From NCBI RefSeq assembly GCF_003334355.1, contig NZ_QOWP01000023.1: a stretch of DNA of 64,000 nucleotides, one strand, 5' to 3'. Shown here piece by piece: positions 10,005 to 10,301 of this stretch; within the stretch, counting starts at the first letter, position 1, and every line of letters begins with the position of its first letter. The DNA comes from Escherichia coli. GTDB lineage: Bacteria > Pseudomonadota > Gammaproteobacteria > Enterobacterales > Enterobacteriaceae. The notes beneath the pieces were generated by a model. It was not told where the DNA came from. It did no database searches and was given only the letters and a program-made list of their open reading frames with translations. A program made the position numbers and the translations under genes.

Positions 10005-10301
10005 TTAGCGGTGATGTTTGCCTGGACCATGACCGCCGTGATGATCATGAGGAGCTTTCTTATGGTGGCGCGGCGGTGGCGGCGGTCCGTGTGGGTGCCA
10101 GCGATTGCCTCGCCATTCATAATGTTGTTTCCACCAGCCGTGGTCGCGCCAGTGACCTCCATCCCAGTAATAGCCACGATTATCACGATCGCCTATCTGT
10201 AATTTTACTGACGGGACTAACGTAATTTCCGCAGCCTGTGCTGCCATGGGAGCGACCAGAACCAGGGAAAGTGCGAGTACGATAGATTGCATCTTTTTCA
10301 C
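10005..10301 (-). CDS. yaaX: Secreted His/Trp/Pro-rich protein YaaX (DUF2502)
   Basis: 98-aa ORF with signal peptide [23 protein letters not shown] and low-complexity HxxH/WW/PPPPP C-terminal half. Confidence 0.8.

Follow-up and report, generated by a model that had tools for sequence, protein, structure and literature searches.

The Escherichia coli gene yaaX has been placed in the RcsB regulon, in published work that terms its product a 'putative periplasmic protein' (PMC2731931). Colicin M induces yaaX (log2 4.1) together with the classical Rcs genes (PMC3599342), and under a LolCDE inhibitor the gene is up 8–12-fold, listed in a table with the annotation 'RpoS stress induced' (PMC5105897). 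The genes spy and cpxP are co-induced with it (PMC2731931, PMC3599342). The paralog ypeC is up 42–60-fold under the LolCDE inhibitor and 24-fold down in an O157 strain with a disrupted rcsB; MarA binds a mar-box of this gene, which has also been reported as a target of SoxS. In a gumB (igaA-type) mutant of Serratia, the promoter of a gene of the same family, DUF2502, becomes more active by several log10, in a manner that requires rcsB (PMC8470065). The gene, the family and the Rcs induction of yaaX are already known, and the identification of yaaX in the DNA analysed here is correct but ordinary. The residual novelty lies in the DUF2502 family itself, which is without a structural relative or an assigned activity.

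Although yaaX comes fifth among the genes of the E. coli reference genome, it is still without an assigned function: in the literature searched, we found no report on the function, localisation, metal binding or phenotype of the YaaX protein, and the first-pass annotation of this DNA was right to call its function uncharacterised. Within the Rcs regulon, YaaX and YpeC form a strongly stress-induced pair of paralogs, both predicted to be exported. The Rcs response to envelope damage affects antibiotic tolerance, capsule and biofilm. Knowledge of the DUF2502 ligand would fill a small gap in the understanding of envelope protection in Enterobacterales, and would also explain the good performance of a DUF2502 promoter as an Rcs reporter. 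Our analysis adds to the published picture a view of the mature protein as a conserved core followed by a variable tail, the repeats of which the family's cores are built, conserved blocks in the promoter region, and the finding that this region carries no canonical RcsB box.

The window, a 64,000-nucleotide stretch of an E. coli contig, carries the E. coli thr region in reversed orientation. An open reading frame of 98 codons followed by a TAA stop occupies positions 10005–10301 on the minus strand, with a GTG start at 10299–10301 and the stop at 10005–10007. This frame is yaaX (b0005), the E. coli DUF2502 gene, and has been annotated before. The encoded protein is identical to YaaX of strain K-12 (NP_414546.1) at 97 of 98 residues, which bears out the name given to it in the first-pass annotation; the sole substitution is at residue 70, Pro here and Leu in K-12 (P70L). 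The K-12 gene has the same flanks, with thrC upstream and yaaA convergent, and the same GTG start, and the two loci differ by a few intergenic SNPs. Several E. coli genomes carry the 671-bp yaaX locus with 100% identity; coverage of at least 80% is reached in 5415 of 5426 complete E. coli genomes, where the gene is annotated as 'yaaX: DUF2502 domain-containing protein'.

According to the map of open reading frames, thrB (11802–12734) and thrC (10515–11801) lie on the minus strand, thrC forming the upstream flank of yaaX, while yaaA (9076–9852), convergent with yaaX, and yaaJ (7576–9006) lie on the plus strand. The gene order thrABC-yaaX-yaaA(-)-yaaJ(-)-talB is the same in all six other genera that we examined: Salmonella, Enterobacter, Citrobacter, Yokenella, Kosakonia and Buttiauxella. 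The gene in the window occupies the position characteristic of the YaaX orthologous group, between the terminator of thrABC and the convergent yaaA-yaaJ. The thr operon terminator, a hairpin followed by a run of T (10459–10492, minus strand; RNAfold ΔG −18.9 kcal/mol), is found just downstream of thrC. A second hairpin (9976–10001, minus strand; ΔG −13.2) directly follows the yaaX stop codon and begins a REP/BIME cluster common to yaaX and the convergent yaaA. Since the thr terminator lies upstream and the hairpin with the REP cluster downstream, yaaX makes up a transcription unit of its own: it is monocistronic, and belongs to the core genes of Escherichia and related Enterobacteriaceae. An Rfam scan of the locus returned only REP-derived models, none of them in the 5′ UTR of yaaX.

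The reading frame is under selection. A Shine-Dalgarno sequence, AAGGAG (10308–10313, minus strand), stands 6 nt upstream of the GTG and is kept in seven genera; the six other genera use the same ribosome-binding site and the same start position, where they have ATG. Over the 48 codons of the conserved core, comparison with these six genera gives a pS of 0.77–0.97, which is saturated, and a pN of 0.08–0.13. Because synonymous sites are saturated while non-synonymous divergence is low, yaaX is a real coding gene, and its core is under strong purifying selection. [quoted passage not shown]

The first 23 residues (10233–10301, minus strand) are predicted to form a signal peptide, on the grounds of their n-, h- and c-regions and the AXA rule, as judged by inspection. 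The n-region is MKK, and the h-region consists of about 15 residues with a mean Kyte-Doolittle value of 2.07. In the c-region Pro18 stands at −6 and A-Q-A at −3 to −1, so that signal peptidase I is predicted to cut at AQA|AE, after Ala23. Pro18, Ala23 and Glu25 are invariant in 20 aligned homologs of the YaaX type. Inspection of the N-terminus found neither a lipobox Cys nor a twin-arginine (RR) motif. Both the features of the sequence and their conservation uphold the earlier proposal of a signal peptide, here predicted to be of the Sec/SPase I type; YaaX would then be exported through Sec, cleaved after Ala23 and resident in the periplasm.

The mature protein falls into two parts. Residues 24–71 (10089–10232, minus strand) make up the DUF2502 core, as delimited by the Pfam match, the alignment, the pN/pS values and the pLDDT. 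Pfam PF10697 (DUF2502) matches residues 25–73 with E = 1.9e-13 and is the only Pfam family matched by YaaX. The core consists of about 1.5 copies of a repeat unit, IGDRDxRGxYWDGxxWRDxxWW (with YWDGxxWRDxxWW as the partial form). The motif IGDRDxxGxYWDGxxWRDxxWW, directly after a signal peptide in a short protein, is thus present in YaaX. In an alignment of 20 sequences, W46, W51, W57, W63, W68, R52, R64, D47 and D53 are invariant, and a 16-residue segment along with the Trp, Arg and Asp positions is nearly so. Two AlphaFold2 runs with different alignments both give a pLDDT of 87–96 for residues 31–70, with a predicted structure comprising a hairpin around a DGG turn, a short helix at 54–60 and a second hairpin at 61–70. 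The core is accordingly predicted to be a small, folded and constrained β-hairpin/helix domain. Sequence and fold searches of the PDB with YaaX found no structural relative, NCBIfam gave only sub-threshold matches that cover signal-peptide regions, and the PADLOC models of defence systems had no match at yaaX.

Residues 72–98 (10008–10088, minus strand) form a cationic tail rich in His, Pro and Gly (8 His, 7 Pro, pI about 11), which is predicted to be disordered: its pLDDT is 46–58 in the two AlphaFold runs, and no secondary structure is predicted. Near its beginning, residues 73–77 are a PPPPP run encoded by CCG CCG CCA CCG CCG (10071–10085, minus strand), the site of the reported proline-related ribosome pause (PMC13410324). 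Three or more consecutive Pro codons with an observed pause characterise the polyproline-stalling, EF-P-dependent proteins; yaaX has both features, and its pause may depend on EF-P. Among the 20 aligned sequences of the YaaX type, only those of E. coli, Shigella and one close relative have the PPPPP run, and a few distant DUF2502 members have Pro runs of their own; as judged from these alignments, PPPPP is not a conserved feature of the family. The tail varies in sequence across genera, being rich in His, Asp and Arg in the others and often ending in PGPD-x-KHH. Even within E. coli there is a second tail allele, PPPSPRHNKHNDHRGDHRPGLDKHHR, which accompanies a nearly identical core. The tails of 209 family members contain on average 14.8% His, 12% Arg, 11% Gly and 10% Asp, and HGHGH-type or His/Asp-rich ends occur even in distant members with two repeats. 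What the compared tails suggest to be conserved across the family is composition, not sequence.

The unusual His/Trp/Pro composition pointed out in the first-pass annotation holds for the mature protein when the long open reading frames of the same window serve as reference: His makes up 17.3% against 2.2% (binomial P = 1e-8), Trp 8.0% against 1.3% (P = 4e-4) and Pro 12% against 4.2% (P = 4e-3). The same annotation, which quoted residues 43–98, described the protein as being of low complexity. This description fits residues 72–98; residues 24–71 are instead a conserved DUF2502 module, with five invariant Trp and a pLDDT of 87–96.

DUF2502 is a small family of short secreted proteins and hardly occurs outside Enterobacterales. 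Family matches are 53–196 aa long in all 104 representatives except one of 1063 aa. This exception (P0204), which came up in the exhaustive search, was disregarded as most likely a spurious match of YWNG-type repeats. Among 26 diverse relatives, the Pfam DUF2502 model matches 25, and matches to further Pfam families are absent. Many database copies of the family genes are frameshifted. DUF2502 genes at other loci are also solitary. Some adjoin mntH and nupC, and one sits between ihfA and btuC; to judge from the gene maps, the adjacency to mntH and btuC may be a matter of synteny alone, and the ypeC–mntH pair is convergent. In an unclassified metagenome genome, the gene of a distant homolog stands after three lipoprotein genes, and an operon of the ECF-sigma/anti-sigma/bufferin type runs divergently from it. 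No recurrent functional partner gene was found among the neighbourhoods of the distant homologs.

The region upstream of yaaX contains two blocks conserved in a footprint of seven genera. Block 1, GAGAAATTCTCAATAAATGCGG (10401–10422, minus strand; −121 to −100 from the start codon), contains the inverted repeat GAGAA-N-TTCTC. Block 2, TTAGAGATTAGGATTGCGGAGAATAACAAC (10367–10396, minus strand; −95 to −66), contains the RcsB-type half-sites TTAGA and TAGGA, and is presumed to be a promoter or activator-binding region. The same footprint includes a conserved CGTAATCTCC, a possible location of a −10 element, and, ahead of the Shine-Dalgarno sequence, a small hairpin. The candidate −10 hexamer is TAATCT (10345–10350, minus strand), in which T, A, C and T are invariant across genera; if it is used, the 5′ UTR is about 37 nt long. 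Upstream of ypeC, at a comparable distance, there is a similar CGTAATAT. These elements make up a putative yaaX promoter. A scan of positions 9800–10560 for consensus promoters and terminators detected nothing on the yaaX strand, and the thr terminator was missed too. We also considered a promoter site common to yaaX and ypeC, but the resemblance between TTAGAGATTAGG and TTAAGAGTTATGG is weak and their spacing differs, and we make no claim for it.

Using the RcsB box consensus TN(G/A)GAN4TC(T/C)NA (PMC7913699) with at most one mismatch, we found no match upstream of yaaX (10302–10460), and none upstream of yaaX orthologs, ypeC and a third paralog. The best candidate, GCAGAAATTCCCAA, has two mismatches and is conserved in Salmonella, Enterobacter and Citrobacter. 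It is a 14-mer at −123 to −110 that overlaps block 1, and its E. coli version does not lie within two mismatches of the box (three by reading). Across the whole window the RcsB-box pattern has 32 matches versus 55 expected in shuffled sequence, i.e. it is not enriched. Direct control of yaaX by RcsB is plausible; since no canonical box is present upstream, the control may be indirect or may act through a non-canonical site.

We propose that YaaX is a periplasmic binder or protectant induced by stress. Envelope damage raises yaaX transcription through the Rcs phosphorelay and RcsB; the product would be exported by Sec and cut after Ala23 to yield a basic periplasmic protein of 75 residues. Its invariant N-terminal strand and Trp/Arg/Asp module would dock on a conserved component of the envelope, and the His-rich tail would be a titratable arm, its charge increasing as the pH falls, by which divalent transition metals (Zn, Cu, Ni) are chelated. 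Taken as a whole, a stress-induced protectant with a docking core and a metal-binding, titratable tail is a tentative reading, possible but somewhat short of probable. The Rcs induction of yaaX, ypeC and the Serratia homolog lends indirect published support to the envelope interaction suggested in the first-pass annotation. For YaaX, we infer the binding of metals or protons and the existence of a partner; metal binding by the His-rich tail, which had been suggested as well, is plausible from its composition.

Several observations hint weakly at metals. In silver-adapted cusS mutants grown in LB, yaaX is among the 23 genes differentially expressed in all of them, with zraP and cusCFBA (PMC10920338); after 4 weeks in cold soil, expression of a DUF2502 gene was raised, as was that of zraP (PMC10667640); and the distant homolog mentioned above has a bufferin-type neighbour. 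Searches of Pfam, NCBIfam and the PDB (sequence and fold) found no similarity to a characterised metal-binding family (ZraP/Spy/CpxP, RcnB, CusF) or chaperone family, and we found no operon partner or recurrent neighbour pointing to metals. In the tail of YpeC, Arg, Gly and Asp far outnumber His; this counts against the metal reading and shows that not every member of the family is rich in His. The divergence of the tail even within E. coli could likewise reflect weak constraint rather than a specific ligand, and also counts against a role in metal binding.

On a wider scale, DUF2502 might represent a periplasmic mini-domain of new structure, in which a hairpin repeat of Trp, Arg and Asp is joined to a His-rich tail, and its members a new class of Rcs-induced envelope protectants that buffer metals or protons or bind a specific envelope polymer, with YaaX and YpeC being redundant. 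This extension to the whole family is rather doubtful. If it is true, the redundancy of YaaX and YpeC could explain why reports of a phenotype are missing.

A protective role could also be independent of metals. YaaX might be a pH-responsive disordered polycation that works in the periplasm as a holdase or hydrophilin, much as is known for Asr and the hydrophilins, with a protonated tail that binds LPS, phospholipid, osmoregulated glucans, colanic acid or unfolded proteins. The mature protein (75 residues, 8.9 kDa) has a pI of about 10 and a computed net charge that increases from +5.9 at pH 7 to +15.1 at pH 5.5; it is very hydrophilic, with 14.7% Gly and without Cys, Phe or Met, and its tail is predicted to be disordered. 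The Arg/Gly/Asp-rich tail of YpeC suits a role based on charge better than it suits chelation, and in published data osmotic and RpoS-type stress genes, as well as colanic-acid genes, are induced along with yaaX (PMC2731931, PMC3599342, PMC5105897). However, ypeC is up only 1.3-fold on rapid acid treatment, a strongly conserved folded core is unexpected for a purely disordered protectant, and the Pfam and NCBIfam searches revealed no similarity to the models of Asr, Spy or CpxP. We consider a metal-independent polycation unlikely.

The near invariance of the 16-residue segment and of the Trp, Arg and Asp positions suggests a specific protein partner, and would fit a feedback or accessory component of envelope-stress signalling, whose N-terminal strand and Trp-rich module bind, for example, RcsF, IgaA or clients of Bam or Lol. 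The conservation of Rcs-dependent induction between Escherichia and Serratia and the strong induction when lipoprotein trafficking is blocked are consistent with such a component. The idea is nevertheless entirely inferential, with no report of a genetic or physical interaction, and the gene is always monocistronic, without a conserved partner gene; a part in signalling appears quite improbable.

The lysozyme inhibitors Ivy, MliC and PliG are Rcs-regulated, and YaaX, which is similarly small and belongs to the same regulon and, by prediction, the same compartment, could be a periplasmic inhibitor of a cell-wall hydrolase (lysozyme or amidase) of the same sort. The ivy gene is among the Rcs genes co-induced by colicin M (PMC3599342). 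Against an inhibitor stand the lack of sequence or fold similarity to characterised inhibitors, with the Ivy, MliC and PliG models unmatched in Pfam and NCBIfam, and the His-rich tail, which has no counterpart in these proteins. We would give this possibility little credence.

The composition of YaaX resembles that of cationic peptides rich in Trp and Arg or in His, so that a released antimicrobial or competition peptide might be envisaged. Such a function is very hard to reconcile with a core syntenic chromosomal gene of nearly all E. coli, with no genes for immunity, export or processing nearby, a Sec signal that reaches the periplasm only, a folded conserved domain under purifying selection, and unmatched models of defence systems. 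As for a chance frame, or a frame whose translation, stalling at the polyproline, is purely regulatory, the small size, partly low complexity, PPPPP stall and many frameshifted database copies might suggest it, but it is effectively refuted by the selection pattern, in which the core has a much lower pN than pS in comparisons with six genera, and it is further contradicted by the conserved Shine-Dalgarno sequence, start position and signal peptide, by the existence of a paralog family, by the absence of PPPPP from most orthologs, and by the convergent orientation of yaaA, which leaves no downstream gene for a leader to regulate.

Set beside known systems, a periplasmic protectant such as we propose for YaaX would find its functional analogs in ZraP, Spy, CpxP and Asr. 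These are small, Sec-exported proteins induced by envelope stress, and ZraP and Asr have His-rich or basic low-complexity regions. The likeness is one of functional analogy only: no sequence or fold relationship between them and YaaX was detectable, and the NCBIfam 'Spy' model matches YaaX in the signal peptide alone, scoring 11.9 bits where the cut-off is 174. In the prediction, the YaaX core is rich in β-hairpins, unlike these four proteins, which are mainly helical.

Closer likenesses are found within DUF2502. The Serratia marcescens protein SMDB11_2817, whose promoter serves as an Rcs reporter, was described by its authors as similar to YaaX; unlike what is known for yaaX, its gene is also activated by ciprofloxacin, independently of Rcs (PMC8470065). 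Proteins with two repeats (for instance P0139, P0144 and P0171), from other Enterobacterales and one unclassified metagenome genome, share with YaaX the signal peptide, the IGDRDxRGxYWDGxxWRDxxWW unit and His/Asp/Gly-rich tails, but have two full tandem units against about 1.5 in YaaX, longer tails and other loci. The E. coli paralog YpeC (b2390) is 60% identical to YaaX over residues 4–71 (E = 1e-30). It differs in its tail, which is rich in Arg, Gly, Asp and Tyr, with few His and no polyproline, and in its locus next to mntH and nupC; in common with YaaX, it starts with a signal peptide, carries the core motif and closes with a basic tail, whose last residues are HGHRH, and it is Rcs-dependent and strongly induced by envelope stress.

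The yaaX gene of Escherichia coli occurs in at least two divergent tail alleles (window 10008-10088, minus strand), which are attached to a nearly identical core. One allele is K-12-like; the other is of the type represented by the DUF2502 family protein P0007 (PPPSPRHNKHNDHRGDHRPGLDKHHR), whose cluster comprises 479 member sequences. Many of the database entries named DUF2502 are frameshifted copies of yaaX: the tails of P0149 and P0183, for example, are identical to the alternative-frame ORF at window 10001-10186 (minus strand), and several E. coli entries cover only 40-77% of the query at 95-100% identity. 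Such copies may stem from misassembly close to the GC-rich CCG repeat, or they may be genuine pseudogene alleles.

The sequence upstream of yaaX contains blocks at window 10340-10425 (minus strand) that are kept across seven genera. Within them lie several elements resembling GAGA(A/T)(A/T) / TCTC half-sites, as well as an inverted pair, GAGATTA and TAATCTC, separated by about 35 nt. A CGTAAT(A/C)T-like sequence is found about 45 nt 5' of yaaX, and likewise of its paralog ypeC. Further upstream, the thr operon terminator, which separates thrC from yaaX, is formed by a hairpin at window 10459-10492 (minus strand; GGCCGGGTTTGC...GCAGCCCGGC followed by a T-run, dG -18.9 kcal/mol). The consensus terminator scan of window 9800-10560 missed this hairpin, probably because its long internal loop exceeds the rules of the scan.

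On the 3' side, a REP/BIME cluster occupies window 9831-9996 between the convergent genes yaaX and yaaA. In the Rfam scan, two REP/BIME copies match naRNA4 (RF02564) at 47.2 and 44.7 bits, below the gathering score of 59.5, and the spacer at 9900-9942 (plus strand) matches ES036/CssrF (RF02751) at 38.8 bits, slightly above the gathering score of 37.6. REP copies are also present 3' of ypeC in K-12.

The genes surrounding the relatives of yaaX were compared at several loci. The ypeC-type paralog (L001 8002-9707; also L008, L017 and L018) is convergent with mntH, which encodes an Nramp manganese transporter, and has nupC nearby; this arrangement, seen in K-12 as well as in Enterobacterales less closely related to it, may represent synteny only. 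A distant two-repeat DUF2502 gene, P0139, was found in the metagenome-derived genome GCA_016218365.1 (L011 2226-5375). Its protein ends, like P0146, in a CPPGQAKKGxC motif. Three unannotated lipoprotein genes precede P0139, and divergent from it runs a bufferin-type operon encoding an ECF sigma factor, a zf-HC2 anti-sigma factor and BufA1-MbnB-HvfC-DoxX.
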